IMG/VR virus record: IMGVR_UViG_3300034082_004296
Span: 32,001 to 96,000 of that record
Origin: a virus
Direction: 5' to 3' (one strand)
DNA: 64,000 nt
In this document: piece after piece, positions 1 through 55,830 of the stretch
How positions within the stretch are numbered: the stretch's first letter is position 1
Layout of the letters: the number at the start of each line of letters is the position of its first letter
Translations under genes and position numbers: made by a program
Notes under the pieces: model-generated
What the model saw: only the letters and a program-made list of their open reading frames with translations
What the model was told of the DNA's origin: nothing
Databases searched by the model: none

Positions 1-903
1 GTTCTTACCTGCCATATCACTATCGAATAGGATTAAGGTATTTGATTTGCTTAATAGGTTTTCTAACAAGAGTTTGCTTTTAGAAATACCAGTAGTTGCA
101 ATAGAATTATTTAGGAACATTGAATCTATTTGACCTTCAGTCACTAGAATAGGTTTTGAAAAGTCAACATTCAATACATTAAAATAATTATTGATCGAGT
201 CAATATCAGCAATAATGTCATCTTCGACATTTCGAACAAGTCCGTTCTTTTTTAACTCAGAATAGTTTTTAATTAGATATTTTGGTCCACTGATTCCTTC
301 TCCAATTCGACGTATTGCAAAGCCTAGGATCTTACCAGTTCGTTGGTCTAGATTAAAAAGATAGATTTTATCCTCTCTTGAATCAAAATAACTGCACCTT
401 TGAAATGCAGGAAGAGTGTCAAGGGCTCGATTCTTTATGAATAGTCCAAGTTCAGTGTCTGGATCAATCTCACTACATGGAGTCAATGAAAATCGAAGAG
501 CTACCTCTTCTATTTTTAAGAGATGATCGCTTGCGCTTTTATTGATTAGAAGTTCAATTAACGATCCTCTCTTCTTTTTAGAAGTTTGGGGTGTCCACTT
601 GACTTGGGCCTTGACATCAGGTAAACCTAATGAATATTTGAGCGCAAACTTAGAGATAAACTTAGGAATATCTGATTTTACTCCACATCCATCATTATAA
701 CATTTATAGAAACCTCGATCTGGATATATGTTACCTCTCTTTTTTCTGGAATCTGTTTTAGAATCACCACAATATGGGCAGGCAAAATTGATCTTATCGC
801 CAGATTCATATACCTCCTGTTTAAATCGATCTTCTGGAAATCTTTTCTTTAGGACATCCTTTATAAAGCTATATATGTTATAACCCGTCAATAGATCAAG
901 CAT
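1..903 (-). CDS. DNA primase (T4 gp61-like), runs off the window edge
   Basis: Not in the ORF track. My translation from ATG 903 gives MLDLLTGY...INFACPYCGDSKTDSRKKRG...YKCYNDGC (Zn finger) and VTEGQIDSMFL...LFDSD (TOPRIM). It overlaps the polymerase stop by 8 nt. Confidence 0.92.
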   Translation of the reverse strand, partial: MLDLLTGYNIYSFIKDVLKKRFPEDRFKQEVYESGDKINFACPYCGDSKTDSRKKRGNIYPDRGFYKCYNDGCGVKSDIPKFISKFALKYSLGLPDVKAQVKWTPQTSKKKRGSLIELLINKSASDHLLKIEEVALRFSLTPCSEIDPDTELGLFIKNRALDTLPAFQRCSYFDSREDKIYLFNLDQRTGKILGFAIRRIGEGISGPKYLIKNYSELKKNGLVRNVEDDIIADIDSINNYFNVLNVDFSKPILVTEGQIDSMFLNNSIATTGISKSKLLLENLLSKSNTLILFDSDMAGKN

Positions 904-2332
904 TTTCCTCCTCTTCTAATTCAAGAACAGGGTTTGCTTTTTCCTTCTTCTTCGTCATTCTTTTCAAATACTTATCGAGTTCAGGTTTTGGAACTATTGT
1001 AGTATTTAGGCCATATCGAGTAATGACTCCCAAGTATTCCTGAAAATCTTCCTCAGCTACATCAACATCAGCATTGCCGATTACCTTCCAGAATTTTTCT
1101 GGAACTTCAATGTATTCTAGTGTTTCTTGATCCACTATGTATAGAGGGTAGATATCAGCATCAGTCAATACTTTTTTACTCTTGACGGTTACTACTTCAA
1201 CTGCACGTTTTAAATTAGTATCAAGCGAGCTCATCTTCATTGCAGTAAGTAATCGATTTATTGGTTCAATTATTAGGGAAAAGAACTGTGAATCGATATC
1301 CATTAATAGAGCGATCTCGTCAGGATAGGTTCCAGGTGAGTATGCAAATACATCATGTCCGCCTTCATTTGTTTCAGGATTACAGTAGTAAAACTTGATC
1401 TTGTCCTTTTCTCTAATCTTAGGATATTTCTCAATAAGTCCAGTCTTAATTAGGATATGATTATAGATGGCGGCAGCTCGAGGAAAGATCGAGATTCCTT
1501 TCTTAAGTTCAAGTCTCTCTTCACTCGTGATATACTTATTATAGACTCGAATATTGAAATTAAATGCTAATTCATCTGGATGAAGAGAACGGGCTTCATT
1601 TTTAAGAACAGTTAGTCGAGGAATAATATCTTTTTCAATATCGAGTCGCTTACCTCGATCCATAATAAAGGAGGTAAGTTCAGTTAGTTTGTCTCGAGCC
1701 CAAATCGGATAAGAACCCTTAACTGGTTCAAGACCTTTGATTATCAAGTATCTCTTTTCTTGTGGTTCTAATTCATAATTTGGATTAGGTTCGTATGCCA
1801 CTCGAATAGCATAGTTTTTCTTTTTAAGCCAAATGCCAGTCTCTGACAAGTTTTCTAATTTAAACTTAAGTCGGTTTTTAGTATTAAATACTTTTCCATA
1901 TTTCTCAAAGCACATATCAAAATAATTGGAAAGTCGATGTCGGTCAATATTGATACAGATATTTAGTGCTTCATCTTTTGAAAAATCTGCACCAATGATT
2001 GAATCTAGGGCAGAGTCAAACTGTACATAGATTGAATCAGTATCGGTGTAAATAGCAGCTTCATCCTCAATCTTATTAATAGTATACCCATCGATTCCTA
2101 ATAATTTATGGAGTTCAGTGTCAAGATGCCACTTTTCTAGAAAATAGTGATTTACTGCCTTAATTGAAAACTTGATTAGATCTTGGCCCTGTAGAGTGAT
2201 TGACTGTGCGATATCTGGATTGTAGAAATAGAACCACTTATTCCCAAATGCTCCATAAATAGAGTTAATTAAGATCTTTATCGCGTTTTGCTTTAGATCA
2301 AGTTTTTTAATATGTTTTTCTTTATCTTCCAT
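896..2332 (-). CDS. Family B DNA polymerase, C-terminal part (gp43B-like)
   Basis: Motif B KILINSIYG near the N-terminus, motif C YTDTDS, KKNYA and IKGLE. No exonuclease domain or motif A. Confidence 0.93.
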   Translation of the reverse strand: MEDKEKHIKKLDLKQNAIKILINSIYGAFGNKWFYFYNPDIAQSITLQGQDLIKFSIKAVNHYFLEKWHLDTELHKLLGIDGYTINKIEDEAAIYTDTDSIYVQFDSALDSIIGADFSKDEALNICINIDRHRLSNYFDMCFEKYGKVFNTKNRLKFKLENLSETGIWLKKKNYAIRVAYEPNPNYELEPQEKRYLIIKGLEPVKGSYPIWARDKLTELTSFIMDRGKRLDIEKDIIPRLTVLKNEARSLHPDELAFNFNIRVYNKYITSEERLELKKGISIFPRAAAIYNHILIKTGLIEKYPKIREKDKIKFYYCNPETNEGGHDVFAYSPGTYPDEIALLMDIDSQFFSLIIEPINRLLTAMKMSSLDTNLKRAVEVVTVKSKKVLTDADIYPLYIVDQETLEYIEVPEKFWKVIGNADVDVAEEDFQEYLGVITRYGLNTTIVPKPELDKYLKRMTKKKEKANPVLELEEEENA

Positions 2333-2337
2333 GTAAT

Positions 2338-2366
2338 GTTATACTTATTAGACTCGATACAGTTTC
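2338..2366 (-). promoter_or_regulatory. Putative early/middle promoter (GAAACT-N17-TATAAC)
   Basis: Instance of a motif recurring upstream of at least 11 non-structural genes. Confidence 0.6.
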
Positions 2367-2423
2367 GGAAACTAAAATACTAAACGTTTCATAAACATTA
2401 AATCTTCGAAGGGTTTCTTGGAA

Positions 2424-2430
2424 ATAAATA
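2424..2430 (+). promoter_or_regulatory. Putative late promoter ATAAATA
   Basis: T4 late-box-like (TATAAATA) heptamer 18 nt before the ATG. Confidence 0.55.
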
Positions 2431-2448
2431 ACAAAAAGAAGTTTAGGT

Positions 2449-3075
2449 ATGGATGACCGTGGCCAAGATGGGACAGTTGATAAGACTTCAGAATTAAAGA
2501 CGGTTCTTCCATTCATGACAGAGTTTCCTTTTGGAGATTACGACATATCAATGGTTGAGCGAGGAGACGACCTTATAAAGCTGGGAGTCTCGCCAATTTT
2601 AGTGAAGGAGTTTGGAGATAATGGAACAATACGAAGCCTTAACTTCTACTATATTGAAGATGGATCAGACATTTCAATTTCTCTCTATGCGGGCGACGTT
2701 GAATGGATCGCAGAAGAGGCGATTCATATCAAAAAGATGGATGATTTACGTAAGACACTAGACGATTCACTAGAGAGCGATGACCTTCTATTAAAGACAA
2801 AGACGATCAAGAAGGGCAGAAAGTTCCTAAAGTTGCTAAACTGTGATAACGTTACTGGAATAGACTTCAACGAACTAATCATAGACTTTACTAATATTTA
2901 TGAGACCGCCCTAAATTCAAAGATTAGATTGGGTTTACAAAAATTGAGCGAGGCGACACTAAGATCCACTGAGTTTTCAGAAAAACAATTTAAAGCGGTG
3001 CGAGCCTTCCTTAATTTTCAAATCCATTACATAAAGATCCTACTTGGGATCGTGATTGCAGCTAAAATATACTAA
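2449..3075 (+). CDS. Hypothetical protein
   Basis: 208-aa ORF immediately upstream of phoH; no motif recognised. Confidence 0.75.
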   Translation: MDDRGQDGTVDKTSELKTVLPFMTEFPFGDYDISMVERGDDLIKLGVSPILVKEFGDNGTIRSLNFYYIEDGSDISISLYAGDVEWIAEEAIHIKKMDDLRKTLDDSLESDDLLLKTKTIKKGRKFLKLLNCDNVTGIDFNELIIDFTNIYETALNSKIRLGLQKLSEATLRSTEFSEKQFKAVRAFLNFQIHYIKILLGIVIAAKIY

Positions 3076-3078
3076 CTT

Positions 3079-3837
3079 ATGGCAAAACGAAGATTAAGCA
3101 AAGACGAATTAGAGGATATTGAAACTTGGCAACGGGAACGTGAAGCACTGACTGCCGCCAAGATGTTCACCAATAAAATAGAGATAAAGTGCAAGTCAAA
3201 GGCTCAAAAGGATGCCCTGACCGCTATTGAGGAGCATGATATCTCAATTATAACTGGACCTCCAGGAACAGGCAAGACTTACTTATCCTGTGCAAGAGCA
3301 TTAAAGTATCTAAAAGAGGATCCTGGTACGTATAAAAAGATTATCTTAATAAAATCAGTTAACGTACCTAAGGATGAGGAGATAGGTTACTTAAAGGGCA
3401 CATTAGAGGAGAAGATGGAGATGTACATGTATCCATTCATCTCTAACTTCCATAAAGTGATTGGTAAACAGGCGACTGAAGCACTAAAAGCATATGGAAA
3501 CATTGAGATACTACCTATCAAGTTTGCATTGGGTGTGACTCTAGATAACGCAGTCATCTTAATTGATGAAGCTCAACAGATAGCTAAGGATCACCTACAT
3601 ACACTATTGACCAGGATCGGTAGTAATTCCAAGATGGTATTCTTGGGAGATATTAAACAAAAATCGGTAAATAAGGGACAAAAGAGTGCTCTTGAGATCT
3701 TGATTGAACATTTTGTAGAGATTGAGGAGATAGGGATTGCTCAGCTTTCCAAAGAGGATATTGTACGTCACCCAATTATTATGAAACTAGAAGAGGTGTT
3801 TGAAAAGATAGAAAATTCTGAAAAACTAAATAAATAA
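3079..3837 (+). CDS. phoH: PhoH-family ATPase
   Basis: GPPGTGKT Walker A, IGYLKGTLEEKM, ILIDEAQ, LLTRIG, FLGD, DIVRHP. Confidence 0.95.
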   Translation: MAKRRLSKDELEDIETWQREREALTAAKMFTNKIEIKCKSKAQKDALTAIEEHDISIITGPPGTGKTYLSCARALKYLKEDPGTYKKIILIKSVNVPKDEEIGYLKGTLEEKMEMYMYPFISNFHKVIGKQATEALKAYGNIEILPIKFALGVTLDNAVILIDEAQQIAKDHLHTLLTRIGSNSKMVFLGDIKQKSVNKGQKSALEILIEHFVEIEEIGIAQLSKEDIVRHPIIMKLEEVFEKIENSEKLNK

Positions 3838-3852
3838 AAATAAAAGATTAAA

Positions 3853-4176
3853 ATGAAAAATCATGTAAAGAAATTTGGTTCATTTGTCAATGAACATTTT
3901 CACTATCCGAGCACAAAAAAACTTAGGTCTCAATTAGTAGGAGGAAAAGGGCAAAAGGCTCAATATGATGAACTTGGAGGAGGAGATCAAGTTGAGTTGG
4001 AAAGTCAGTTTGCAGAATTAAGCGGCGACCCTGAACTAGCCAAAGCATTTGTTAGAAAGCTATCTAAATATAACTCGATTGAGGATATAAAGGCAGGCTT
4101 AGAACAAATGTTGGATGTTTTAAGAAATCCTAGGACTGAAGATAATGAACCTGATTGGGACATGCGTAACTATTAA
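3853..4176 (+). CDS. Putative internal head protein with capsid-targeting-like leader
   Basis: Leader MKNHVKKFGSFVNE; ATAAATA at 3830-3836. Confidence 0.6.
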   Translation: MKNHVKKFGSFVNEHFHYPSTKKLRSQLVGGKGQKAQYDELGGGDQVELESQFAELSGDPELAKAFVRKLSKYNSIEDIKAGLEQMLDVLRNPRTEDNEPDWDMRNY

Positions 4177-4235
4177 TCTTTAACTTTTAAATGATTTGAA
4201 AACTCTGAAAAAATAAATAAAAATAAACTAGTATT

Positions 4236-4529
4236 ATGAATACAAATCATATAAAAACGTTTGGTCAATTTGTGAATGAATCTACTGAAGCGGGTTGGGA
4301 TCCAACTACTATTTCTTCTGTACAGGGAAAACTGGCGGTTACTAAAACTGGTAAACTGGACACAGCTACAATTCAAGCCCTTAAGGGTTATCAAGAAGGA
4401 CACTCAATATCAGTAACTGGGAAGATAGATAAAGCAACTCTAGCAAGTATGGGAATAAAAGGAAAATGGGTAGATGCAGGACATACATCGGCTGAACGAA
4501 AAGCAGGAATGAATTCAGCGATTCGATAA
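4236..4529 (+). CDS. Small peptidoglycan-binding-domain (PG_binding_1-like) protein with capsid-targeting-like leader
   Basis: Leader MNTNHIKTFGQFVNE, then VQGKL..TGKLDTATIQALKGYQEGHSISVTGKIDKATLASM; ATAAATA at 4213-4219. Confidence 0.7.
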   Translation: MNTNHIKTFGQFVNESTEAGWDPTTISSVQGKLAVTKTGKLDTATIQALKGYQEGHSISVTGKIDKATLASMGIKGKWVDAGHTSAERKAGMNSAIR

Positions 4530-4550
4530 AAATAAAATTTCCTAGATATC

Positions 4551-4580
4551 AAAAAAGCGACTTACTCAGGTCGCTTTTTT
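4551..4580. terminator. Bidirectional intrinsic terminator
   Basis: AAAAAAGCGAC-loop-GTCGCTTTTTT between convergent genes. Confidence 0.8.
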
Positions 4581-6136
4581 GATAAATCTACTATCTTATC
4601 TGATGTCTCAAATTTTTGTTCTCGATAGATCTCCTTTCTTACTTTTGCATGTCGAATCGAATAGCCATCGAGCTGATCGACTAGGTCCCAAACAAGGACT
4701 TTTGTCTTTTCGGCTAATTTTCTCATCCCTCGACCTATCGCTTGACGTAGGGTGACTTCAGCTTTTATTGATTCTGCTAAGATAATGTGGTGCAGATTCT
4801 TAGAGTCGATTCCAGTAGCAAAAGTACCGAAAGATGCGACCAAGATCACATCATCTTGTGATTCCAATATATCTTTAAATCGATCACGCTCTTTAGAGTC
4901 GACTTCGCCATCTATATAGAAGGTATTAGGGTTCCATTCCAATAATTTAGACTGGATTGCCTTTCCATAACCATTTTTGACGTCTGAAAAGAGGATCAGT
5001 GAGTTTTTTCCAAATTTTCGAGCAAGATCGCTAATAAAATCAAGTCTCTCCTTACTATCAAAGATAATTCCCTTTTCAATGGCTAACATGTCCCTCCCAA
5101 AGTCCTTGGGGTTGTTATACATCTCTTTTCCAGTCTCCTTGAGGTGCCAGTATTTTTGAATCATTGGATCCGATTCGTCATACTTTAGTTTGACAATCTT
5201 AATCTTAATATTTGGTGAATATCCATTATCAATTAGGTGTTTTGCTGAAAGAACCATCACCAATGGGCCAACATTTTCCTGCACTTTAAAGAAATCTGAA
5301 AACTGTTCATCTAGTTTAACGGTACCCGATAAACCAAGACGATATTCCCAATTGACGCAACATAGAAGGATCTCTCGAATGGAATTACCCTTAGACTTGT
5401 GTACCTCATCCACTTGAACTATTGAAAACTGTCGAAAGATTTCAACTGGGAGGTTTATTAGGCTCTGATAGGTTGAGATTACTATTTCAGCCGCATTGAA
5501 CCTCTCTTGAGTGAATTTGTCTTTACCTCCAATCGTACATACGTTCCATTCTTTACCAGGTCGAGCATACATTTCAAACTTTTCAGCGGTCTGGCCTACT
5601 AGTGAAATATTCGGGACTATAATTAGGGACTTCTTTTCTTTAGTAATCTTTCCTCCGTCTCTTAAGAATGAATTATAGATGAAAAAGATAAGGGTCTTAC
5701 CGGCAGAAGTCGCTAATTCTTGAGTACAAAACTTGTATTTAATTGCTCTAAATGCACCTTCTACTTGATAGTCCCTTGGCACGATTGGAAGGCCTCTCTC
5801 ATCAATAATTCCGTCCAGTAATTTCTCTACGTATTTTAGATACTGATCGCGACTTATTTTATTATTAACGAAAGTTTCTGCACCTTCAATCTCACAATCA
5901 TATCCAGACTTATCGGCAAAATTATAGATTTCCTTCCATAATCCAATGGCAATATTACCGTCCTTTGTAATAAATGAATCTAATCCGTCCCATACTCCAC
6001 GATCGACTAGGACATTAAACGCTGCTTTTTTAGATTTGCGCTTAAAAAACCTGAATAGACTAGTCTTTTCACTGTTTAAGGTGGAGTCAACTAGTTTGAT
6101 AAATTTCTTGTCTTGTGATACTTTGAATTTTAGCAC
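4562..6136 (-). CDS. uvsW: UvsW-like SF2 DNA helicase
   Basis: PRDYQ, ATSAGKT, DEVH, GLSGT, TGID, QAIGRGMR. Confidence 0.92.
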   Translation of the reverse strand: MLKFKVSQDKKFIKLVDSTLNSEKTSLFRFFKRKSKKAAFNVLVDRGVWDGLDSFITKDGNIAIGLWKEIYNFADKSGYDCEIEGAETFVNNKISRDQYLKYVEKLLDGIIDERGLPIVPRDYQVEGAFRAIKYKFCTQELATSAGKTLIFFIYNSFLRDGGKITKEKKSLIIVPNISLVGQTAEKFEMYARPGKEWNVCTIGGKDKFTQERFNAAEIVISTYQSLINLPVEIFRQFSIVQVDEVHKSKGNSIREILLCCVNWEYRLGLSGTVKLDEQFSDFFKVQENVGPLVMVLSAKHLIDNGYSPNIKIKIVKLKYDESDPMIQKYWHLKETGKEMYNNPKDFGRDMLAIEKGIIFDSKERLDFISDLARKFGKNSLILFSDVKNGYGKAIQSKLLEWNPNTFYIDGEVDSKERDRFKDILESQDDVILVASFGTFATGIDSKNLHHIILAESIKAEVTLRQAIGRGMRKLAEKTKVLVWDLVDQLDGYSIRHAKVRKEIYREQKFETSDKIVDLSKKRPE

Positions 6137-6151
6137 GAGAGTGCATTATTT

Positions 6152-6586
6152 TTATAGACCCAGTGTCTTTTCTATATCGAGTCGAGTTTTGATACCAAAG
6201 ATGATATTATCGATGGTCTTGATGGATTCATTGAAAAAGGTGATCTGGTTCTCGAATATCTCTAGAGATTCTTTAGTTGCTGATGTCCTACCCTCGATTA
6301 CCATGTTTTTTTCGTTGGCTTGATATCGGATCTGAAGATTCCTTGAGATATTTTCCATCTCCAAAGAACGCTCATCCCTGTATTTTTTTCTAAGTAGAGT
6401 CACGTGTTCCAATAGAGTATGATTGTCTTCTAACAATCTTTGACGAAGGGAGAGCATGTTTACTTGTGCCTCCTTAAGAGTTTTAAGGTTGGAAAGCTTT
6501 TCAATATTTTCATAGATCTCTTTAGAGACTTCAGCACGTCTGTCCTGAAATTTTTTAGAAATCTTGGATTTTGTCTCCTCGTTCAT
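6152..6586 (-). CDS. uvsY: UvsY-like recombination mediator
   Basis: 144-aa helical protein next to uvsW; C-terminal ESIKTIDNIIFGIKTRLDIEK resembles UvsY. Confidence 0.6.
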   Translation of the reverse strand: MNEETKSKISKKFQDRRAEVSKEIYENIEKLSNLKTLKEAQVNMLSLRQRLLEDNHTLLEHVTLLRKKYRDERSLEMENISRNLQIRYQANEKNMVIEGRTSATKESLEIFENQITFFNESIKTIDNIIFGIKTRLDIEKTLGL

Positions 6587-6629
6587 GCTAGAATAGTTTT
6601 ACTCTTTATACTCAAAAAAGAGGAAGGGT

Positions 6630-7121
6630 TTAACTCACAAAATCGATAAACTTATAATAGGTCGAGCCTATCTTAAAGTGTTCGTCGTTTACCATTTCGT
6701 CCTTACTTATCGATGAGACTACCTCGTTTCCTGCAGGAGAAGTCGAGCCGTCCTCAAAATAGTAATCAACAAATTCTTCACCTTTTTTACCAAGAATTAG
6801 GTTCTTGATCTTATATTTTTCAAAAATTTGTGGTATCTTATCTTTAAATGATACATCATCGTCAAGAACCATAAAGATGGATGGATAATCTATTAACTTA
6901 CCATCTTGACTAATAGCAGCAGACTGTTTTACATAATCGTCCTCAAGAAGATCAGAATCAAGAGCAGAGGTATAGGTCTCTTTGTCCTTGAATGTGATTA
7001 TCACAAAGGGAATCTTTGTTTGGATCGCATCCCTAACTTGGGTCCAAGTATGACTAGTCTCTTCAGTAGTAGACTTTATGTCCTGCTGATAGTCTTCGTA
7101 TAGTTTGATATATTTAGTCAT
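6630..7121 (-). CDS. Hypothetical late protein with leader motif
   Basis: MTKYIKLYEDY leader; ATAAATA on the - strand at 7144-7150. Confidence 0.65.
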   Translation of the reverse strand: MTKYIKLYEDYQQDIKSTTEETSHTWTQVRDAIQTKIPFVIITFKDKETYTSALDSDLLEDDYVKQSAAISQDGKLIDYPSIFMVLDDDVSFKDKIPQIFEKYKIKNLILGKKGEEFVDYYFEDGSTSPAGNEVVSSISKDEMVNDEHFKIGSTYYKFIDFVS

Positions 7122-7164
7122 CCTTTAAGATAAAACTTTTTATTATTTATCAATAAAATATAAT

Positions 7165-8345: not shown

Positions 8346-8377
8346 TAGCCATAATAAATAATAAAAAATATTTTAGG

Positions 8378-8935: not shown

Positions 8936-8946
8936 AAGATAAATCC

Positions 8947-10821: not shown

Positions 10822-10867
10822 AACTTTAGTCTACTTTGCAAATATAATATACAAAACTTTTCTTAAA

Positions 10868-29836: not shown

Positions 29837-31204
29837 TTAGCTATTATACTCTTTTTGAAGTGCTTTTTTCAATTCTTGTAAATCTTCTCGATACATGTTC
29901 AGAGGCTCCTTCTTCTTAATCTCTTCAAGTTCCCTCTCTTTTTGAAACTCAGCACTTATTAAGTCTTCATATGTTTCCTTAGTAAGTGAATGAATCGGCA
30001 TCCCTAATAGGTATTGATATGATCCATTTATCTCATCAAAGTTATCTGTCTCCAAGTAGAGAATTATCTCTTTTCTAGGAACATTATTGATCTTTAACTT
30101 ACCCTCAATTATGGCTTTTACGAAACGTGCTCTATTTGAGAGTAGAGCGAGTTCTTGATTTAGAGTATCAATAATAAATTGCTTTCTCTTTTCATAAAAA
30201 GTGAGCCTAAATTGAACGAAATATTCAATAATCTCACTGGCTGAATTAAAGATTTTTAATTTACCGTGTTCGTCCAATACTGTAAAGTTCTCAGTCTGGC
30301 GTTCTTCCATCTTTAGGAGTCTCTTTAATCTTACTGAGTCACCTAACATCTTAAGATCTTCTCGTCTAAACTTAAGAACATAATTGATGTTAGACTTGCA
30401 GTTATTTTCGTAACTTGCAATTCTTCGGGAATCTTCAAGATCGATTAAGTGCTGGTCGAATTTTTCATAAGTAACAGAAGGAGGAAGCTCTGTAATATTC
30501 ACAGTCGTGGTATTTTTTACTTCATACTTTCCACTAAATATCCATGAAAACTTTTCGGGGTCTATTAGTTCGCAACCTCCAATAAACTCTCTGTTCCATG
30601 GAGTAGGTTCAGCATATTTTTTACCCTCTAGAGATTTTAAACAGGCATCGATTAGGCTAATTGGATTGCGATTTAATATATTTGTTGCGAAGCCTACTGC
30701 AATCCCGCTACCGCCATTCAGGAGGACAGTTGGGATAATAGGTAAGAAATATTTAGGTTCGATCTCATTGCCTTCCTCGTATCGAGATTCTAATAATTCA
30801 AAATCTTTATATAGGAGTCTAAAGTTCTTATGTAACTTGGTTGCTATATAACGAGGAGCGGCTGCTTCTGGCGAACGTAAGGATCCAAACTGACCAATAT
30901 CTTCTAATACTGGCATTGAGTTCTTAAACCTTTGTGCCATGCCAATAATTGCTGAATTAAGAGAGCCGTCTCCATGGTGATAAAAAGCGTCTGCCGCCAC
31001 CCGACCGGCTAATTGAAAGATCTTCATTGGTTTTTCTGAACCGTTCTTCCATACTTTATTTGCAACAAAGATTACTTTGCGTTGAGTTGGCTTGAATCCA
31101 TCGATCACTGATGGAATTGCCCGCTCTTCAACGACATATACTGCATACTCCTTATAGTCGTTATCTAAATAGTCGGTTACTGTCTTTATTTCTGGCTTTC
31201 GCAT
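29837..31204 (-). CDS. DNA topoisomerase II, GyrA/ParC-like subunit (gp52)
   Basis: RAIPSVIDGFKPTQRK, YHHGD, AAPRY (catalytic Tyr), GIAVGFAT. Confidence 0.96.
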   Translation of the reverse strand: MRKPEIKTVTDYLDNDYKEYAVYVVEERAIPSVIDGFKPTQRKVIFVANKVWKNGSEKPMKIFQLAGRVAADAFYHHGDGSLNSAIIGMAQRFKNSMPVLEDIGQFGSLRSPEAAAPRYIATKLHKNFRLLYKDFELLESRYEEGNEIEPKYFLPIIPTVLLNGGSGIAVGFATNILNRNPISLIDACLKSLEGKKYAEPTPWNREFIGGCELIDPEKFSWIFSGKYEVKNTTTVNITELPPSVTYEKFDQHLIDLEDSRRIASYENNCKSNINYVLKFRREDLKMLGDSVRLKRLLKMEERQTENFTVLDEHGKLKIFNSASEIIEYFVQFRLTFYEKRKQFIIDTLNQELALLSNRARFVKAIIEGKLKINNVPRKEIILYLETDNFDEINGSYQYLLGMPIHSLTKETYEDLISAEFQKERELEEIKKKEPLNMYREDLQELKKALQKEYNS

Positions 31205-31675: not shown

Positions 31676-33538
31676 TTAGTTATTTCCAAGGATTCTGTCC
31701 TTTCGTGGTTGAGAATCCTTACCAAACCATGACTCAAGTGAGTCTCGATAGTCTTTATCGTTCTTGATTTGCACAAGATAAGGATTTTTGATTATTTCTT
31801 CGTATTCGGCGTCCTCGAGGGCTCCCAATCCCTTTTTGTATTCGATTTCCCAAGAAGAGGTCTTATTCTTCCTCAGCCAGGCATCAAACTCTTCATTTGT
31901 GTAAAAATTAAGTGAGTCTTTGCCTTTTTTAGCGACAACTAGTGGAGTCATTACCTTGTATACCCTACCTTGGTCAAAAAGTTCGGGCCAAAAGCGATTA
32001 AAAAAGTTAATTAAGGTTGCTGCAATGTGACTACCGTCAGGATCGGCGTCAGTATAGATATAGATGCGACCGTAGCGTAGTCCTTTAGGTTCTTCGCCTA
32101 ATTTTAGTCCCAGGGAGGCCATTAACTGCACGGCTTCGTCATTTTTAGCGATTTCAGAGGGTTTCATCTCACTTACATTGATAAATTTACCCTTTAGAGG
32201 AAATGCACCAATTATTTGAGTGTCTCTAAACTTACGAACTGCTGAAACTGCTGAAAGACCTTCATATATGCCTAGGATACATACTCCGCGGTCACCTTTG
32301 CGTTGTGCATCGATCAATTTAGGTATTTTTGTCTTATCTAGGTCCTTATTTAGCTTTCTGAGCTCAGCTCTCTCTTGAGCAAGGGCTTTTTTCTCTATCC
32401 AATCTAGGACCGACTGTATTATTTCAGACTTAAAGACTAGTTTTGCTAACTTATCTGTCACTTCGTGCTTAGTTCCGAAATCTTTGACCTCAGTGATCAG
32501 TTTTTCCTTAGTTTGTGAGCTAAAGAATGAATTTACAATAGTCGAATCGATAAAAACGTATATGTGATTGCGGATATCGCTTGGCTTGACGTCGACTTTG
32601 TGTTTTTTCTTGATCATCTCTCTTAATTGAGCGATTAATTGATTAGTAATGTACTCTACGTGAGTTCCGCCATCTTTAGTATGTACTGAATTGACAAAAC
32701 TTACGTTTTGAAAGCCATTTTCAGACTTTGCAAAGCCTATTTTCCAATCTTTGGTCTCTTCAAAAAAGTATTCTTGAGCATAGAGCTGGATATATTCCTC
32801 AAAGCTCTTAAATTTAAGAACAAAATCCTCTTTTTTACCGTCCTTGACCTTAGTTAGCTTCAAGGTAAGCTTGTTATTACATGCAACTAGGTCCAAGCAA
32901 CGTTTAAAAAGTATCTGAAAAGACTTTTCGTCAATTAATCGCATCTTAAATCGTTCAAGGTCCGGAAAAAATGAGATTTCGGTGAATCCACGCTTGGCTG
33001 GGGTGATCTTTGCAGTAGTTCGTTTTCCCATATTGTCAGTAAAGACTTGGTCAAATCGGTTTTTACCATCACATGTGGAAATAGTGAACTTTTTGCTAAA
33101 TATATTAGTTAAAGTGGAACCAACACCATTTGTTCCGGCAACAGTACGCTGTTCTGAGTCATCAAAGTTGGATCCAGCCTTTAGATTTGAGAAAATCATT
33201 TCAGGAATCCATTCTTTATGGACTGGGTGTTTTTCTACTGGAATTCCGCCGTTATCCCATACTGAGATTTCAGTAGTGTCTAAATTAATCGTCACCCTAA
33301 TCTCATTCAGTTTAGGATTTCGACGATGTTCATCTACCGAATTTGAAACAATCTCATCAAATAATTTAATAAAGCCCGGATTATAGTGAACCTCTTCAAC
33401 CGTTACCTTCTCTCCATCATATAGATGTTGCTCTCCAGTATGGATAGCGACTGATCCAATATACATTGATGGTCTGAGCAAAACATGCTCAATGTCAGTC
33501 AGTTTTTGATATTTTGTTTCTATTGATTTTTTAGCCAT
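31676..33538 (-). CDS. DNA topoisomerase II, ATPase/TOPRIM subunit (unsplit gp39+gp60)
   Basis: EHVLLRP, EIVSNSVDE, GTNGVG, EGLSA, PLKGK, DADPDGSHI, YKKGLG. Confidence 0.96.
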   Translation of the reverse strand: MAKKSIETKYQKLTDIEHVLLRPSMYIGSVAIHTGEQHLYDGEKVTVEEVHYNPGFIKLFDEIVSNSVDEHRRNPKLNEIRVTINLDTTEISVWDNGGIPVEKHPVHKEWIPEMIFSNLKAGSNFDDSEQRTVAGTNGVGSTLTNIFSKKFTISTCDGKNRFDQVFTDNMGKRTTAKITPAKRGFTEISFFPDLERFKMRLIDEKSFQILFKRCLDLVACNNKLTLKLTKVKDGKKEDFVLKFKSFEEYIQLYAQEYFFEETKDWKIGFAKSENGFQNVSFVNSVHTKDGGTHVEYITNQLIAQLREMIKKKHKVDVKPSDIRNHIYVFIDSTIVNSFFSSQTKEKLITEVKDFGTKHEVTDKLAKLVFKSEIIQSVLDWIEKKALAQERAELRKLNKDLDKTKIPKLIDAQRKGDRGVCILGIYEGLSAVSAVRKFRDTQIIGAFPLKGKFINVSEMKPSEIAKNDEAVQLMASLGLKLGEEPKGLRYGRIYIYTDADPDGSHIAATLINFFNRFWPELFDQGRVYKVMTPLVVAKKGKDSLNFYTNEEFDAWLRKNKTSSWEIEYKKGLGALEDAEYEEIIKNPYLVQIKNDKDYRDSLESWFGKDSQPRKDRILGNN

Positions 33539-44035: not shown

Positions 44036-44063
44036 AAAACCTCATAGCAATATGAGGTTTTTT
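44036..44063. terminator. Bidirectional intrinsic terminator
   Basis: AAAACCTCATA-GCAA-TATGAGGTTTTTT. Confidence 0.85.
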
Positions 44064-44066
44064 GTT

Positions 44067-44465: not shown

Positions 44466-44466
44466 T

Positions 44467-45948: not shown

Positions 45949-46041
45949 AACTTAGTTTTTATTTTTATACATGTTACTTTTAAAAAGTTTCGATTTTTAA
46001 ATAAAACTTTGCTAGCATCATACAATGTATAACTAGTTTGA

Positions 46042-48818: not shown

Positions 48819-49042
48819 CCTTGAGTTGCTAACTGGTCAATATCTATTACTTTTGAAATACTCGTAAGTTTTGCTAAAAACGCAGTAAGAGCAGCAGGGG
48901 TCGCAAAAGTATAAGTGGTTGGCAGGATTGAGTTAGCATCATAGAACGTTATGTCGGTTGATGAAGTCTGTTCATACCGATATACTTGCTCAAGGTTAAG
49001 ATATACTGATCCACCTGTGTGAGTTAATTTTATCCAAATCAT
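48815..49042 (-). CDS. Hypothetical protein
   Basis: 75-aa ORF, translationally coupled to its neighbours. Confidence 0.65.
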   Translation of the reverse strand: MIWIKLTHTGGSVYLNLEQVYRYEQTSSTDITFYDANSILPTTYTFATPAALTAFLAKLTSISKVIDIDQLATQG

Positions 49043-49587: not shown

Positions 49588-49601
49588 TCATAAAGATTAT
49601 T

Positions 49602-51086
49602 TTATATTGAATTAAAGAGAGCGTCATAGTCGTCCTCAATTAAGTTTTCATTTACAAACGATGGAGAGGCATTAGTTATTTCAGAGTATTCTGATCTTAA
49701 CTCATCTGCCATTCGACTCACTTCTTCATCGTCGCTATAGAATTCGCTGTTTTGTCCAACTTCTTCAGAAAGTCTAAAGTAGTCCTTATGCATAGTATAA
49801 AACTTGTAACTTTCTTCGTAACCGTTGTCTCTATTCGCAATCACTTTGATTTTCATTCTACTCTCTAATGGACTTCTCATAAGACCAAATAGAGCGTCAA
49901 CTGTGTGGATTAGACCAAATGACTCAGCTACTGAATCCATACCCAAATCAAAGTTGTCAATGTCTTCTCTACGAATCTGAGTAGCACTAATAACACACCA
50001 TTCATTTCGCATAGCAACACCTCTAAGTTCTTCAGAGATTGCTTTGATCTTTTCATATAGGCCGTTTTGAGTGTTGATTGGTTTAAGTAGGTTTAAGTAA
50101 TCAACAACGATGACTTTAAATTTTCGATTCATCTTTTGTTCTAGTCGAACAAAATAATTCTCAATGTCGATTGCAGTTGCGCCACCGGTTGGAAATTCTT
50201 TGATAACAAGTTCACCAATAGTTTGACCTGAAGCCTTAAGTTCATTTATCTTTTTCTCAATTAGCTTAGCTGCATGTTCGTCTGTGATATTAGCATAATC
50301 TTCAGACTTGATGTTTAAAATATTTGAACCGATTCTTTTCATATAGGCACGATCAGCTAATTCTACCGTGACTAGTCCAGTTGCATTTCCAGTCAAGAAT
50401 GATCGAGCTGCAATATTTCCAAGCACCATTGATTTTCCAACCTTTGGTCTACCTTGAAAAACAACTAGCGCTTTTGAATTCCAGCCACCACCCTGTACCT
50501 TATCTAAGAATGGAAATCCAGTAGGACTACCTGATTTAGAAATTTGGATATGGGATTCAGGGTTAAAGAAATTTAAACCAGTATCTGCGCTAGAAAAATT
50601 TAGAGCAAGCTTACTACTAATATCATTTCTGATTTTTTCAGAAATCTTATCAATATTTCCAGGATCAATTGGGGTAGTCTTTAAATAAGTAAGAAGATCA
50701 AATACTGTTAGGTTTAGATTTCTTAGAAGAATAAACGACCTAACGTACTTATAAAGATAATCATAATTGTATTCGGTCAAGTTAAAGGCATATAACTCAT
50801 TAAACTCGTCATCATTTAGATTAACATGAGAAAGATCAAGGTAACTCTTTAATTCCTTTCGGTTTGGAATCTTTTCGTATTCTTTAAAAAACTTAACGGC
50901 TGCCTTAAATGACTCCTGTCGATCATCCTCATTAAAATAGCTAGGCTTCATCATTGTGATTAGCTCTTCTCTTCTTAACGAATCATGATTGGATGGACGT
51001 AGGTCATTTATGTCATTCTCAGAATTAAGAATAAAATTCCAAACCATCTTTTCAAGAGAGTCAATATTTTCTGTAAAATCAATCAT
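49602..51086 (-). CDS. Replicative DnaB-like helicase (gp41)
   Basis: PTGF..LD, GRPKVGKS, IKEFPTG, VVDYLNL, SATQ, AESFG. Confidence 0.93.
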   Translation of the reverse strand: MIDFTENIDSLEKMVWNFILNSENDINDLRPSNHDSLRREELITMMKPSYFNEDDRQESFKAAVKFFKEYEKIPNRKELKSYLDLSHVNLNDDEFNELYAFNLTEYNYDYLYKYVRSFILLRNLNLTVFDLLTYLKTTPIDPGNIDKISEKIRNDISSKLALNFSSADTGLNFFNPESHIQISKSGSPTGFPFLDKVQGGGWNSKALVVFQGRPKVGKSMVLGNIAARSFLTGNATGLVTVELADRAYMKRIGSNILNIKSEDYANITDEHAAKLIEKKINELKASGQTIGELVIKEFPTGGATAIDIENYFVRLEQKMNRKFKVIVVDYLNLLKPINTQNGLYEKIKAISEELRGVAMRNEWCVISATQIRREDIDNFDLGMDSVAESFGLIHTVDALFGLMRSPLESRMKIKVIANRDNGYEESYKFYTMHKDYFRLSEEVGQNSEFYSDDEEVSRMADELRSEYSEITNASPSFVNENLIEDDYDALFNSI

Positions 51087-51417
51087 TCGTTAAGTAAAAA
51101 TAAGTTAATCCTTTTTTTGTAAAATAGATGAATTCTCCTTGAGTAGTAAGATATTCTTCGTTGATCATCGTCTTTAATGATTTAACTAAGTTTGTCTTAA
51201 AAGTTTCATCTTTTATCCTTTCACCAAAAACGTATTTTAGAGACTTGGATGAAAACTTTATGCCATCCGGGTCAATATCCTTGTCTTTGGAAGCAGCAAC
51301 CCTTATAATGTACTGTAGGATCTCAAAAAGGAGGGTAAACTCATCGCTCAATCCCTCCTCATTATATAAGTTCAGATAATACTTTATCGGTAGATCAGAA
51401 CGTAGATTCATCGTCAT
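51079..51417 (-). CDS. Hypothetical protein (winged-helix-like C-terminus)
   Basis: Between uvsX and gp41; LKTMINEEYL...IYFTKKG. Confidence 0.6.
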   Translation of the reverse strand: MTMNLRSDLPIKYYLNLYNEEGLSDEFTLLFEILQYIIRVAASKDKDIDPDGIKFSSKSLKYVFGERIKDETFKTNLVKSLKTMINEEYLTTQGEFIYFTKKGLTYFYLTND

Positions 51418-52597
51418 CGTTTAAATCATTAAGTTCACTTGTCTCTAATAGATCAATTTCATCTTGTGTTTCTGGGAATTTAAAGGTAGGCTTAATTACT
51501 TTTTCATCAAGTTCCAATAGTACGTCATGAGTAAATAATCGAGCTGAAAAAAATTCTTTGACTTGTACTAAATCACCATTGTGTCGAATAACATAATTTT
51601 TTCCAAGTTTCTTTGGTAGAAAATAGAATTTTTCTCCATCTACTTCAAATTCTGAACAGATTGATTGTTCGTCTGCTTTAAGCTTTGAAAACTCTTTTTC
51701 AGTCAATTTATTTCCTCGACCTACTCCACAATTTTCCCAACTAACAAACTGTTCAAGACCAACATATTGATTCATACCTTTATGGAAAGAGATATGGAAT
51801 TCAATGTCGATTGGTTTAGCTAAACGATTCTTTCTAGTCTTGGACCTAACGATAATTCCAGTAGTGGTTTTGGCATCGTCTCTTAAGGTACCTTTACTCA
51901 ACATCAAGATTATTGAAGCTGAAAACTCAGGACCACCACCACCAGACATTCCTTTAGGAGTGTATTGATCCATCGACGCATATGTGTGATTTGTAAAAAT
52001 AAATGGAACTTTTAAGTTAGATAGTTCAAGAGTAAATGACTTGAATAGAGATCTCATCTCTTTAGAACGAAGTCCCATATCTGATGCATTTTTACCAGCA
52101 TCCATGTCTCGCTTGCTCTTATCTGTATCCAACATTCCGACTGAATCTACAAAGATCGCAGCCTTTAATCCTGGATTTTCTCTCATCGTTTCGATAAAAT
52201 CATTGATAAAGAACTTAACATCACTGATTAAACCCATACGAAGGTATTTTAATTTTTCTAGATCTACTCCAAACTTAGTGTAGTCAGACCGGTCAATTGC
52301 ACCCTCAGTATCGATATAGAAAACGAAATAGTCTTTCTTTTGAAGTTCACGAACAGCATTTAAACAAAGAAATGTTTTACCTGCACCAGAGTCTCCAGCA
52401 ATTCCAATACTTCGAGTGTTTGGATATCCTCCAAATACTGAACCTGAAATTTGTGCATTTAAAAGATAATTTCCAGTTGGAATATAATCATCAATGTCGG
52501 AGAATCCCATTAAGGTGACTTTGGACTTTACTTTCTTTTCTAATAGATCATTGAACTTATTAAAAGCATTAATTGCGTCATTTGTTGACTTTGCCAT
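51395..52597 (-). CDS. uvsX: UvsX/RecA-like recombinase
   Basis: TGNYLLN, GDSGAGKT, DTEG, VDSVG, NHTY, GGGG. Confidence 0.94.
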   Translation of the reverse strand: MAKSTNDAINAFNKFNDLLEKKVKSKVTLMGFSDIDDYIPTGNYLLNAQISGSVFGGYPNTRSIGIAGDSGAGKTFLCLNAVRELQKKDYFVFYIDTEGAIDRSDYTKFGVDLEKLKYLRMGLISDVKFFINDFIETMRENPGLKAAIFVDSVGMLDTDKSKRDMDAGKNASDMGLRSKEMRSLFKSFTLELSNLKVPFIFTNHTYASMDQYTPKGMSGGGGPEFSASIILMLSKGTLRDDAKTTTGIIVRSKTRKNRLAKPIDIEFHISFHKGMNQYVGLEQFVSWENCGVGRGNKLTEKEFSKLKADEQSICSEFEVDGEKFYFLPKKLGKNYVIRHNGDLVQVKEFFSARLFTHDVLLELDEKVIKPTFKFPETQDEIDLLETSELNDLNDDDESTF

Positions 52598-52642
52598 AAT
52601 TAATTTGTTTTAATATATTCTACTAGAGAATGGGCAAAAGTT

Positions 52643-53200
52643 CTATTCAGAGATGTATGAAAGTAATAAAATAGAACAGGATAAGGCTAACGTATCGCAT
52701 ATCTCTCCTCTCATGACTCTGCTAAATCTTACTTTATCTATAGAGTGAAGCTTTGATTCGGGATTAAGAACTTTTGCTGTAAATCCGGACGGTTCATCGC
52801 TATAATTAGTTAGGTTGACTGCATAACACTTATAAGTCTTAGTAAAAGGAACAGTATGTTGGATTTGACCTAAATAAAAAATATCATTTACATCAATATC
52901 ATTCAATCCAAGTTCATGGTCTATGCAATCTGATAGAGACTCATGATAGGTGTTAAATTCGTCTGGTTCAAGTGTAGTTGTGATGCATCGATGGTTTTCT
53001 CCATCCAATACATAATCGTGATATTTAGCTAAGTATAAGTTTTTTATTTGGCCGTTTTCATTAACGTCAAAAGGAAGCAAACATATTGCTTCCTTTGAGG
53101 ATGAAATTCTTTTAAAGCTTCCCTTGTCTCCAGTGAAACTTAGAATCTTAAACTTATCGTCTGAATATTCTTCTTTTGAATTAAACTGATCATTCTTCAT
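52643..53200 (-). CDS. Degenerate NUDIX-fold protein
   Basis: AICLLPF..,DCIDHELGL (eroded Nudix box), YLGQI, YAVNLT. Confidence 0.5.
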   Translation of the reverse strand: MKNDQFNSKEEYSDDKFKILSFTGDKGSFKRISSSKEAICLLPFDVNENGQIKNLYLAKYHDYVLDGENHRCITTTLEPDEFNTYHESLSDCIDHELGLNDIDVNDIFYLGQIQHTVPFTKTYKCYAVNLTNYSDEPSGFTAKVLNPESKLHSIDKVRFSRVMRGEICDTLALSCSILLLSYISE

Positions 53201-53828
53201 GGATCTCGGTGATATTTACAGTAGGTCCAGACTTGCTTCTCTGAGTTTTTAGTGGAACCACCATGTCTGAGATAGCTGACTGTATTACAGTTTTATTTAT
53301 CGCTCGAAAAACGTAATCAGATAATTCACTTAAAAACTTTTCTTTGTCCTTAGCGTTACTATACATCATCTTTAGAAAATCCTGTTCAGGAAGATTCATA
53401 GTTACTTGAAGATCTATTTTACGCTCTTCTGAATTAAACATCTCAAACATATTAGTAGTAGGCTGAGCCTGTTGAAAATGTCGAGGCTGAGCATCACCAT
53501 TTTGTTCTAAAGAATTTGGCGGCATTGTCTGAGTTTGATTTACTCTAGGTTGAACAGTCGGTCTCTTTGGTCCAGAAATGGATTCAACTTCTGCTTTACT
53601 TAAAGGCTGCATGTCTCCATGTATCATGAGTAGACTTGTATTAAGTTGAGCAGTATCTACACTTGACCCATCATCAAATAGGGCAAAGAATCGGTCTCCC
53701 CTAGGCTCAATATTTCTGCAGGTAACAACTTTGCCTAATAATTCAGGACGATTTGTCTTGATCCACTGAAATTTTGCTCCAGAAAAGTTTTCCATTAAGG
53801 AAATTAGTTTATTTTCATCAAATTGCAT
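53190..53828 (-). CDS. Hypothetical protein
   Basis: Start revised to MQFDENK to avoid overlap with the upstream gene. Confidence 0.65.
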   Translation of the reverse strand: MQFDENKLISLMENFSGAKFQWIKTNRPELLGKVVTCRNIEPRGDRFFALFDDGSSVDTAQLNTSLLMIHGDMQPLSKAEVESISGPKRPTVQPRVNQTQTMPPNSLEQNGDAQPRHFQQAQPTTNMFEMFNSEERKIDLQVTMNLPEQDFLKMMYSNAKDKEKFLSELSDYVFRAINKTVIQSAISDMVVPLKTQRSKSGPTVNITEIHEE

Positions 53829-53844
53829 CTGATCTTGATTTTTT

Positions 53845-54177
53845 TTAGGAATTAAGTTCTTCCATAGTTGAGGCAGTCTTATTCTCCTCAATAGCTTTAA
53901 TAAATTCTTCATCTAACGAACCATTATTTGGAAGATTTGAGTCTGGTTGAACCAGTGTGATTGTTGAAAAGTGATCTGCTGGAATAGGATCAATCGACTT
54001 ATTCCATAGTGGATTATACATTTCGCCAGTTGAGCGATTTATTGCAAACTTATCTTTGCTTGTAGGCAAAGCTGCCATCTTTTTTCTAACCTCCTTGATT
54101 TGTTGAGGAGATGGTGAATTTTTACATGCGTCTAGAAATCCTTCTAGCCAGTTTACAAAATCTTGTGTTGTGTTCAT
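53845..54177 (-). CDS. Hypothetical protein
   Basis: MNTTQDFVNWLEGFLD. Confidence 0.7.
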   Translation of the reverse strand: MNTTQDFVNWLEGFLDACKNSPSPQQIKEVRKKMAALPTSKDKFAINRSTGEMYNPLWNKSIDPIPADHFSTITLVQPDSNLPNNGSLDEEFIKAIEENKTASTMEELNS

Positions 54178-54178
54178 A

Positions 54179-54409
54179 TTAATCGGTTATTTTAAAATTT
54201 ATCTCTTCTTTTAGTTTTTCAATGTCTAAATCATCTGCAGTGTCTGCATTTAGGACAGTCAGTGTCAGCTTTTCGATATCACTGGATCGATATGCTATCA
54301 CATAATAGTCAGTTAATTTATCTTCTAATTGAGCAATTGACTTATTAATGGGTTGTAGTTGAGTTATTGAATCTTCCGGAAAAGCAACTACGAGTATTGG
54401 CTTTGCCAT
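54179..54409 (-). CDS. Hypothetical protein
   Basis: 76-aa ORF coupled to the polymerase N-part stop. Confidence 0.65.
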   Translation of the reverse strand: MAKPILVVAFPEDSITQLQPINKSIAQLEDKLTDYYVIAYRSSDIEKLTLTVLNADTADDLDIEKLKEEINFKITD

Positions 54410-55830
54410 TATTTTGAATTTTTTAACTGTTTAATCTCACCCTGAGTCTTGATACGTTCATCATATAGACGAGTAAGAATTTTCCTAGCAACTGAATCTG
54501 TTTTACTTGAAAACATAGTATCGTTCTTAGTATGGATTTCAGTACCGTCTTTTTTAACTTTATCGGTTTTTCCAAGATAGGTATCTGGTGAGATATTAAA
54601 TTGAATTTGTATGTTAGGATACATTGATGAAAAGTCATAGCATGCAACTGCACCATAATATCCAGGAATTGGATCCTTTACATAGGCGCCGGCATAGGTT
54701 CCATCAATAACTTCTTCTCCCCAAGGAAGTTTCATCATCTTCATGTTCTTGTTTAAGAACTCACGACACATTAGAATTTCAGCAATATACACTGGACTAA
54801 ATACTTTATTTACTTCAACTTGAGCGACGTTTGCCATAGCGAAGGCAACATCCATTAGAGCTAGCTTATCTTCGATTAGTTTAACTAGAATAACGTCAAT
54901 TACGTTATACATAGTAAAAAGATAAGTATCTTTTTGAAACTCTCTAAATGAAGGATAATCGTGGTGCAATTTAGCTGTACCTAGGACAAGATCTGCAATG
55001 TAATCAAGCTTATAGTTTTCTACAACTTTATAAGGCTTCATTTTTTCAAAGACTTGCATGTAATCAAGAACTCCTAAGTGAGTAGGAATCTTGACTTTAG
55101 AAACAGTTGATCGAGTTGGCATTTTTTCCATCATATCGATCTTTAGGTTCTTACCGCGATTCATCAGATACTTCCAGTCAAATTCTGTTACATTCCAGCC
55201 AGTCACAAAATTAAAGTGGGGCATAATCTTATGGAAATAGAATTCCATTAATTCATCTTCACTCTTAAAGAACTTATATTTAATTTTGAAATCTTGATTA
55301 AAGAGGCGAGCATCTTCTGGTTTTTTAGGAACGGTTTTTCTAAAGTATTCATTGACCTCTTTTTCCATTTGAACGATCTGTTCTGGTGCAAGACCATCAG
55401 GCTGATCTTCGGTATTTAAAATAGAGAGAATGTAGGTGATGTTGTCTTCATTACAGAATGAGATCAACCCAACTGGCATTCTAGCTTTGTCTGGTTCTGG
55501 AAAAGAGTCATCAATTAATTTAATCTCAATATCGAGATATGTTTTCTTAGGAAAATTATCAAAGTTATAGACTAGCTCAAGTTCTTCAGCCGTTAATTTT
55601 TCTTGAATTAACTCTTGAATTCTAAACTGGTTCATGTATTGTCCTTGAGACTGACCCTTTTTTACAAACTTTCCATTCCAATTTTTAGTAGTGGTTGGCG
55701 TTTGAGATTCTACCCAATTATACATTTCATGGTCCATTAGTCTTTTTCTAATAAATTCTATTTTTCCATTATTGTTATAATAAGAAATTGTTAAAATATT
55801 ATCATTTAATACTTCGGCGCCAATTATCAT
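54409..55830 (-). CDS. Family B DNA polymerase, N-terminal part with 3'-5' exonuclease and motif A (gp43A-like)
   Basis: LDIE (ExoI), GWNVTEFDWKYL (ExoII), YKLDYIA, YNVIDV (ExoIII), YAGAYV, YDFSSMYPNI (motif A), NISPDT; ends at the first fingers helix. Confidence 0.93.
   Translation of the reverse strand: MIIGAEVLNDNILTISYYNNNGKIEFIRKRLMDHEMYNWVESQTPTTTKNWNGKFVKKGQSQGQYMNQFRIQELIQEKLTAEELELVYNFDNFPKKTYLDIEIKLIDDSFPEPDKARMPVGLISFCNEDNITYILSILNTEDQPDGLAPEQIVQMEKEVNEYFRKTVPKKPEDARLFNQDFKIKYKFFKSEDELMEFYFHKIMPHFNFVTGWNVTEFDWKYLMNRGKNLKIDMMEKMPTRSTVSKVKIPTHLGVLDYMQVFEKMKPYKVVENYKLDYIADLVLGTAKLHHDYPSFREFQKDTYLFTMYNVIDVILVKLIEDKLALMDVAFAMANVAQVEVNKVFSPVYIAEILMCREFLNKNMKMMKLPWGEEVIDGTYAGAYVKDPIPGYYGAVACYDFSSMYPNIQIQFNISPDTYLGKTDKVKKDGTEIHTKNDTMFSSKTDSVARKILTRLYDERIKTQGEIKQLKNSK

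Follow-up and report, generated by a model that had tools for sequence, protein, structure and literature searches.

A family-B DNA polymerase encoded by two unlinked genes in an uncultured T4-like phage

Two half-genes and a break in the fingers

The stretch of DNA analyzed here (the window, 64,000 nucleotides, 36.7% G+C) comprises bases 32001-96000 of a 176,210-bp IMG/VR virus contig, IMGVR_UViG_3300034082_004296, the completeness of which is estimated by CheckV at ~70%. Its source is an uncultured, T4-like phage with a genome of roughly 250 kb. Two open reading frames (ORFs) on the minus strand of the window encode complementary parts of a family-B DNA polymerase (PolB), referred to below as the N-half and the C-half (Table 1). 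An earlier, sequence-only reading had described a PolB divided into two genes about 52 kb apart, and both ORFs lie exactly where that reading placed them, separated by 52,076 bp and at least 12 strand switches.

Database comparisons assign the two ORFs to consecutive portions of one enzyme. The N-half matches DNA_pol_B_exo1 (PF03104, E 1.5e-10) and positions 20-143 of the DNA_pol_B profile (PF00136), while the C-half matches positions 145-238 of the latter. Against the full-length gp43 family of PHROGs (phrog_262, 856 positions), the N-half covers 60-488 and the C-half 500-841, and the half-length families phrog_2062 and phrog_1918 are matched by the N-half and the C-half, respectively. In both databases the domain content is complementary, with neither gap nor overlap. 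RB69 gp43, present in the Protein Data Bank (PDB), is matched by both halves (phmmer E 1.7e-32 for the N-half), and a model of the C-half superposes on RB69 residues 589-896 with a Z of 22.9 and a root-mean-square deviation of 2.8 Å over 293 residues, other rows of the comparison reaching 546-903.

The catalytic motifs are distributed accordingly. The N-half carries the exonuclease residues (Exo I, D100/E102; Exo II, N213/D218; Exo III, Y308/D312), motif A (D399) and the first fingers helix, as the sequence-only reading had listed them. The C-half, for which motifs B and C had been claimed, contains motif B (K19-G27), motif C (D97/D99) and a KKRY-type motif (KKNY, 171-174), together with the second fingers helix and the thumb. 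All of these motifs are invariant in the clade, as judged over 24-26 members. The two metal-binding palm strands, with their catalytic aspartates, sit on different polypeptides, so that neither half by itself contains a complete polymerase site. In pairwise comparisons with relatives (dS at least 1), the ratio of nonsynonymous to synonymous substitution rates (dN/dS) is 0.02-0.05 for both halves, which establishes strong purifying selection on each.

Alignment of the junction with RB69, phage 25 and phage 133 places the C-half start at ~RB69 542-546, with N-half R459 corresponding to RB69 R482 and C-half K19 to RB69 K560. The break therefore falls within the fingers tip, between the R482-bearing helix and the motif B helix; 14 residues of the N-half follow R459, and the C-half starts 18 residues ahead of the motif B lysine. 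Some 46 fingertip residues of RB69 have no counterpart in the window polymerase. Within the first fingers helix, N-half Q463 occupies the position of RB69 K486, which contacts the triphosphate. The window shares this glutamine with most close members of its clade, and the Lak and LR756500 phages described below retain lysine.

Halves divided in this manner could come to be linked covalently, through a split intein (protein trans-splicing) or through trans-splicing of intron halves at the RNA level. PolBs with split inteins are known from Nanoarchaeum and certain phages, and a distant relative of the window polymerase carries an intein splicing domain. This protein, P0203 (a 959-aa metagenomic PolB of the same subgroup), ends in the domain (residues 880-956) and may be a split-intein or a truncated form. 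However, neither half of the window polymerase contains a Pfam intein domain, both ends can be aligned straight onto the fingers helices of RB69, with no room left for an IntN (~100 aa) or an IntC (~35 aa), and there is no Cys/Ser/Thr +1 context. The coding context is equally tight, as the N-half stop overlaps the ATG of the next ORF and a conserved -10-like box precedes the C-half ATG by 7 nt, and no match to an Rfam intron or other RNA family was found in the window. A split intein was rejected for want of an intein domain and of spare length at either end, and an intron or trans-splicing RNA for want of an Rfam match and for the tight context at both junctions. The lack of joining elements, already proposed from the missing split-intein termini, is thus established, and covalent joining is extremely improbable.

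Relatives, distribution and origin of the split

Both halves are found on one strand, always one of each, in four independently assembled IMG/VR contigs from other samples. Identities of the N-half and C-half to those of the window are 95/92% in G004, 75/74% in G001, 59/55% in G002 and 50/54% in G003, in which the halves lie 52.7, 67, 53.6 and 44.8 kb apart, respectively. The genes flanking each half are conserved among these relatives, and the interval between the halves is collinear (52 of 65 ORFs in G001; 31 of 65 in G003). At none of 79 related loci was the other half found within 3 kb. Identical or near-identical halves are also present in deposited 'uncultured Caudovirales phage' genomes of ~250 kb (CAB4175628, CAB4175526). 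Since the record is a metagenomic contig, it might in principle be an assembly chimera of two phages, each with one broken polymerase gene; the same arrangement in four independent contigs and in the deposited genomes, together with the collinear synteny between the halves, renders this scarcely credible, and misassembly was excluded on the strength of these contigs, their conserved flanks and the collinear interval. Conservation of the arrangement is established.

A single N-half and a single C-half are encoded in the 176-kb record, in which no further PolB and no PolA or PolIII alpha was found. Likewise, no further polymerase was found in six related records (G000-G005), which jointly span more than the genome length, and PolA and PolIII alpha were not found in G000, G001, G002 and G004. 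The sequence-only reading had named a second partner for either half, a full-length polymerase elsewhere and a misassembly as outcomes that would overturn it; the genome and its relatives yielded one N-half and one C-half each, and none of the three was encountered. It could nevertheless be that the halves do not form one enzyme, the N-half being a stand-alone exonuclease and the C-half having another role or none, with a host or undetected polymerase replicating the genome. The record is incomplete, and RM378-type phages separate exonuclease and polymerase functions (as cited in PMC3061061). Nonetheless, motif A on one half and motifs B and C on the other do not vary and are under strong purifying selection, a pattern difficult to account for unless a complete site forms, the divergence of the two halves is matched from relative to relative, and the pooled records hold no other polymerase. 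Separate functions for the halves are therefore very unlikely.

The arrangement is not peculiar to the window genome but typical of a large clade, and it is present in published huge-phage genomes. In the clade, half-length N-parts fall into 345 clusters at 90% identity, and their identity to the query is 50-96%; for the nearest full-length proteins it is only 27-33%. Among the best 150 of the 50%-identity representatives in an exhaustive search, 116 are 400-600 aa long and 24 have a length of 750 aa or more. The polymerase is broken at the same point in Chryseobacterium phage MA9V-2, with the halves 3.4 kb apart, and in the huge phages LR756500 (10 kb apart), LR745206 (101 kb), the Lak megaphage Lak-A2 (221 kb) and LR756504 (281 kb), the last three of which carry the halves on opposite strands. 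These phages have the finger-tip break point and the PolB subgroup in common with the window, but their halves are only 26-34% identical to those of the window and bear longer, coiled-coil-like tails at the break.

Two of these loci show additional features. In MA9V-2 (OR513085, 149314-155537), a gene for a TnpB-family RNA-guided endonuclease and two hypothetical genes lie between the halves, which hints at mobile elements prying polymerase halves apart. In Lak-A2 (MK250019, ~345.6-347.6 kb) and LR756500 (~251.7 kb), the C-part is apparently broken again after the motif C region, leaving ORFs of 273 and 261 aa, respectively; in Lak-A2 the later piece of the C-part lies ~1 kb downstream. An insertion, an intron or a third subunit might explain this second interruption. 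Recoding of TAG has been reported for Lak phages.

In a tree of the concatenated halves, the window clade groups with Lak, LR756xxx and MA9V. A branch with a support of 100 in the Shimodaira-Hasegawa-like approximate likelihood-ratio test (SH-aLRT) separates this group from the T4-type gp43 proteins (RB69 and the split polymerases of phages 25 and 133). Because this branch lies between them, the window split probably arose independently of the gp43 split of Aeromonas and Acinetobacter phages. Three full-length proteins nest inside the split group, and when all split forms were constrained to one clade, the approximately unbiased (AU) test gave a borderline result (p 0.044, for a group that was named after the tree had been seen), so that the split may have arisen once or several times in this group. 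Among T4-like freshwater phages with genomes of roughly 250 kb, both the split and the separation of its halves go back to the ancestor of a large clade.

Gene neighborhoods and promoter-like elements

Each half resides in a replication-gene neighborhood of its own. A leftward block of 17 genes, with the N-half in third place, runs from the MazG/dUTPase-like gene through a zinc-ribbon ORF, the N-half and small ORFs to UvsX, a gp41-like helicase, gp47/gp46 and thymidylate synthase. The C-half opens another leftward block, of 7 genes, that continues with the primase, a gp4-like head completion protein and the portal. These blocks, and the strand switches between them, bear out the proposal that the halves belong to separate transcription units, that the C-half is coupled to primase and that the N-half lies upstream of uvsX and gp41. 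The further claim that the N-half follows the dUTPase gene held in part: the N-half does lie downstream of a MazG/dUTPase-like gene, but the zinc-ribbon ORF intervenes, and the gene itself has a weak dUTPase_2 match only (E 0.0012, below the cut-off), the nucleoside triphosphate (NTP) pyrophosphohydrolase family fitting better.

Table 1. Positions in the window of the polymerase halves, neighboring genes and promoter-like elements
Feature	Position	Strand	Remarks
gp61-like DNA primase	1..903	-	377 aa in genome, extends beyond window start; start overlaps C-half stop by 8 nt
C-half PolB ORF	896..2332	-	478 aa; begins MEDKEKHIKKLDLKQNAIKILINSIYG; residues 1-378 structurally align to RB69 546-896
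Clade-specific C-terminal extension of C-half (~residues 372-478)	899..1219	-	past RB69 thumb end
64-aa ORF	2322-2516	-	overlaps C-half start and divergent gene at 2449; probably spurious
Promoter-like AAAC-N17-GTATAA(C)	2339..2365	-	ends 7 nt before C-half ATG; in 116-bp divergent intergenic region 2333-2448
Other promoter-like AAAC-N15-19-GTATAA examples	6606-6631, 45965-45990, 63602-63627	-	
Topoisomerase II subunit genes	29837-31204, 31676-33538	-	gp39/gp52-like
gp41/DnaB-like helicase	49602-51086	-	downstream of N-half, same leftward block
UvsX-like recombinase	51395-52597	-	downstream of N-half, same leftward block
N-half PolB ORF	54409..55830	-	473 aa; C-terminal end ...RLYDERIKTQGEIKQLKNSK, then stop; ends ~RB69 residue 496
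Codon of N-half Q463	54439-54441	-	equivalent of RB69 K486
Small four-Cys zinc-ribbon ORF (CxxC...CxxC)	55827..56102	-	probable start ATG at 56060, 77 aa (77-91 aa)
MazG/dimeric-dUTPase-like NTP pyrophosphohydrolase	56077..56544	-	first gene of N-half's 17-gene block
AGTATAAT box	56564-56571		upstream of MazG/dUTPase-like gene

The interval between the halves holds, among other genes, those for the prohead protease, the major capsid protein, topoisomerase II subunits and helicases. Topoisomerase II is encoded by separate subunit genes in a T4-like arrangement, and in G003, the most divergent relative, no match to this block was found in the stretch that separates the polymerase halves. The zinc-ribbon ORF terminates in a stop codon overlapping the N-half start (ATGA). 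This ORF keeps its place ahead of the N-half in G001, G002 and G004, has no match in G003 and matched no family; its product could be a polymerase accessory protein. The 64-aa ORF at the start of the C-half has no counterpart in the relatives and is probably spurious.

Promoter assignments were made from motif enrichment only. Two motifs are over-represented upstream of genes, namely ATAAATAA and a GTATAAT-type box. The former occurs in 32 of 81 upstream regions, mostly ahead of structural genes; because of this placement it would be a late-like element, and it resembles the T4 late promoter. The latter belongs to a bipartite AAAC-N15-19-GTATAA element, of which there are 8 copies in the window against 1.2 expected, and which precedes replication and nucleotide-metabolism genes. 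One copy lies directly ahead of the C-half, and its GTATAA box is kept in most relatives, in agreement with the earlier proposal that the C-half has its own promoter motif. The position of this copy suggests a leader that is very short or absent. On the N-half side, the AGTATAAT box is by itself not enriched in the window (8 copies against 4.7 expected), and a AGTATAAT box before the zinc-ribbon ORF was dropped as a promoter because it is not conserved in distant relatives.

Predicted assembly and known split polymerases

The two genes very probably specify a single replicative PolB of the T4 gp43/RB69 type, the two polypeptides of which associate non-covalently into one enzyme. In such an enzyme the N-half would give the exonuclease, the palm strand of motif A and the first fingers helix, and the C-half would give the second fingers helix (motif B), the palm strand of motif C and the thumb. 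The active site, with the metal-binding aspartates D399 of the N-half and D97/D99 of the C-half, would be formed only in the heterodimer. The interface is expected to consist of the shared palm beta-sheet, in which the motif A strand lies beside the motif C strand, and of an antiparallel pairing of the two fingers helices. Upstream of each half there appears to be a -10-like promoter-like element of the GTATAA type and not the late ATAAATAA motif, which suggests that the two halves are co-expressed; the N-half sits with uvsX and gp41, and the C-half is translationally coupled to primase.

Complex prediction, one of the checks proposed with the sequence-only reading, gave an ipSAE of 0.82 for the N-half with the C-half, vs 0.00 for the best of three controls; this mark is reached by 58 of 80 solved complexes and by 2 of 110 mismatched pairs. 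The runs share at least 94% of their contacts, and the partners have a predicted local distance difference test (pLDDT) score of at least 85. The best predicted contacts join N-half residues 395-398 (motif A strand) to C-half residues 101-104 (motif C strand) and 159-163, and the fingers helices pair. The prediction supports binding, but the pass may reflect likeness to solved single-chain PolB structures, and because such structures have been solved it is not independent proof. Experiments on other enzymes point the same way. For instance, 43A and 43B of Aeromonas phage 25 co-purify with polymerase activity (PMC2988022), and a Pfu polymerase engineered with a finger-tip split behaves like the wild type (PMC3061061); finger-tip splits are, on this published evidence, compatible with full activity.

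Several points weigh against a heterodimeric replicase. The interpretation is computational for this phage. The equivalent of a triphosphate-contacting lysine (RB69 K486) is replaced by a glutamine, promoter assignments rest on the motif enrichment described above, and the record is ~70% complete, a further polymerase being excluded only by pooling overlapping relatives. Moreover, no gp45-type clamp was found with Pfam models PF09116 and PF02916, although both models were silent in control genomes too and the record is incomplete. Still, all of the computed results agree with a non-covalent heterodimer from unlinked loci, as the sequence-only reading had proposed, and the assembly itself is inferred from them.

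For the C-half extension, conserved over ~100 aa, AlphaFold2 predicts a small domain of the alpha/beta type (pLDDT ~85), after which come a Lys-rich stretch and then an acidic tail. The domain has no Pfam match, its matches in an Atlas search were limited to unnamed or low-information clusters, and in a fold search of the full set of PDB representatives the best Z was 3.0, so that no fold was assigned. It might replace or carry a clamp-binding tail. By analogy to the DNAP-N/C-Rhc complex of PhiKZ, which uses an unusual processivity subunit (PMC13648687), the heterodimer could need a third, clade-specific component for stability or processivity, either this extension or the zinc-ribbon protein, which is translationally coupled to the N-half. 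The extension is conserved and confidently folded in prediction, the zinc-ribbon ORF is likewise conserved, with its stop overlapping the start of the N-half, and the clamp models were silent. In contrast, gene neighborhood is by itself weak evidence, the extension lies outside the predicted N/C interface, the zinc-ribbon ORF is missing from the matches in G003 and the clamp search is weakened by the incomplete record and the silent controls. A requirement for a third component is accordingly unlikely.

There is a small chance that the unlinking is functional and not a tolerated accident. Separate transcription units would let the phage set the ratio or timing of the halves, and the primase-coupled C-half with its clade-specific C-terminal domain could form a polymerase-primase module. 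In addition, the open, shortened split fingertip, in which K486 is changed to Gln, could shift nucleotide selectivity, for instance toward modified deoxynucleoside triphosphates; an engineered finger-tip split altered nucleotide selectivity in Pfu polymerase (PMC3061061). Whether functional or tolerated, an abundant lineage of environmental phages has apparently kept an essential single-chain replicase in the form of two separately transcribed genes over a long evolutionary time, and the split is the majority form in a PolB subgroup that includes the largest known phages, judging by the half-length proteins among the nearest 50%-identity clusters. In annotation pipelines and in surveys that use polB as a marker gene, such polymerases will be given the wrong size or overlooked, and phylogenies should concatenate the halves. 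If they assemble as proposed, these natural heterodimers offer ready material on how PolB tolerates an open fingertip.

Finger-tip splits and unlinked PolB splits have each been published already, and the unlinked finger-tip split of phages is present but unremarked in public genomes; literature searches returned no paper describing it, the splits of Lak, huge phages and MA9V-2 included. The bicistronic gp43 of T4 relatives, to which the sequence-only reading had pointed, is documented for Aeromonas phages 25, 31, 44RR and 65 and Acinetobacter phage 133 (Petrov et al., 2006, 2010, as reviewed in PMC2988022 and PMC3061061). The cistrons, 43A and 43B, lie 2 bp to ~3 kb apart (PMC3061061), with one homing-endonuclease gene between them in phage 25 and 8 genes over 2.9 kb in phage 133. 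These polymerases resemble that of the window in enzyme family, in a finger-tip break between two long helices, in lacking an intein and in consisting of two polypeptides. However, 43A and 43B are encoded on one strand and at most ~3 kb apart, whereas the window halves lie 52 kb apart (45-67 kb in relatives) in separate transcription units. The fingertip of RB69 is also longer than that of the window polymerase by the residues noted above, and in the tree the window halves fall outside the Tevenvirinae gp43 lineage.

The chimallivirus PhiKZ offers a parallel for the unlinking, as its DNAP-N (gp82) and DNAP-C (gp50), described by cryo-electron microscopy in a 2026 preprint (PMC13648687), likewise make a phage PolB from two unlinked genes with the motif A and motif C aspartates on separate subunits. 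These proteins form a stable 1:1 complex, while the window complex is a predicted one. In PhiKZ the polymerase is broken within a large insertion domain of the palm, whereas the window break is at the fingers tip and there is no palm insertion; further differences are the much larger size of the PhiKZ enzyme (1369 aa), its position in a divergent PolB clade and its clamp-like subunit, Rhc. On the archaeal side, the split PolB of Methanothermobacter thermautotrophicus is encoded by genes 85 kb apart (Kelman et al., 1999, as cited in PMC3061061). It shares with the window polymerase two distant genes and a non-covalent assembly, which is predicted for the window, and differs in that its break lies in the palm, ~83 residues C-terminal to the finger-tip position.

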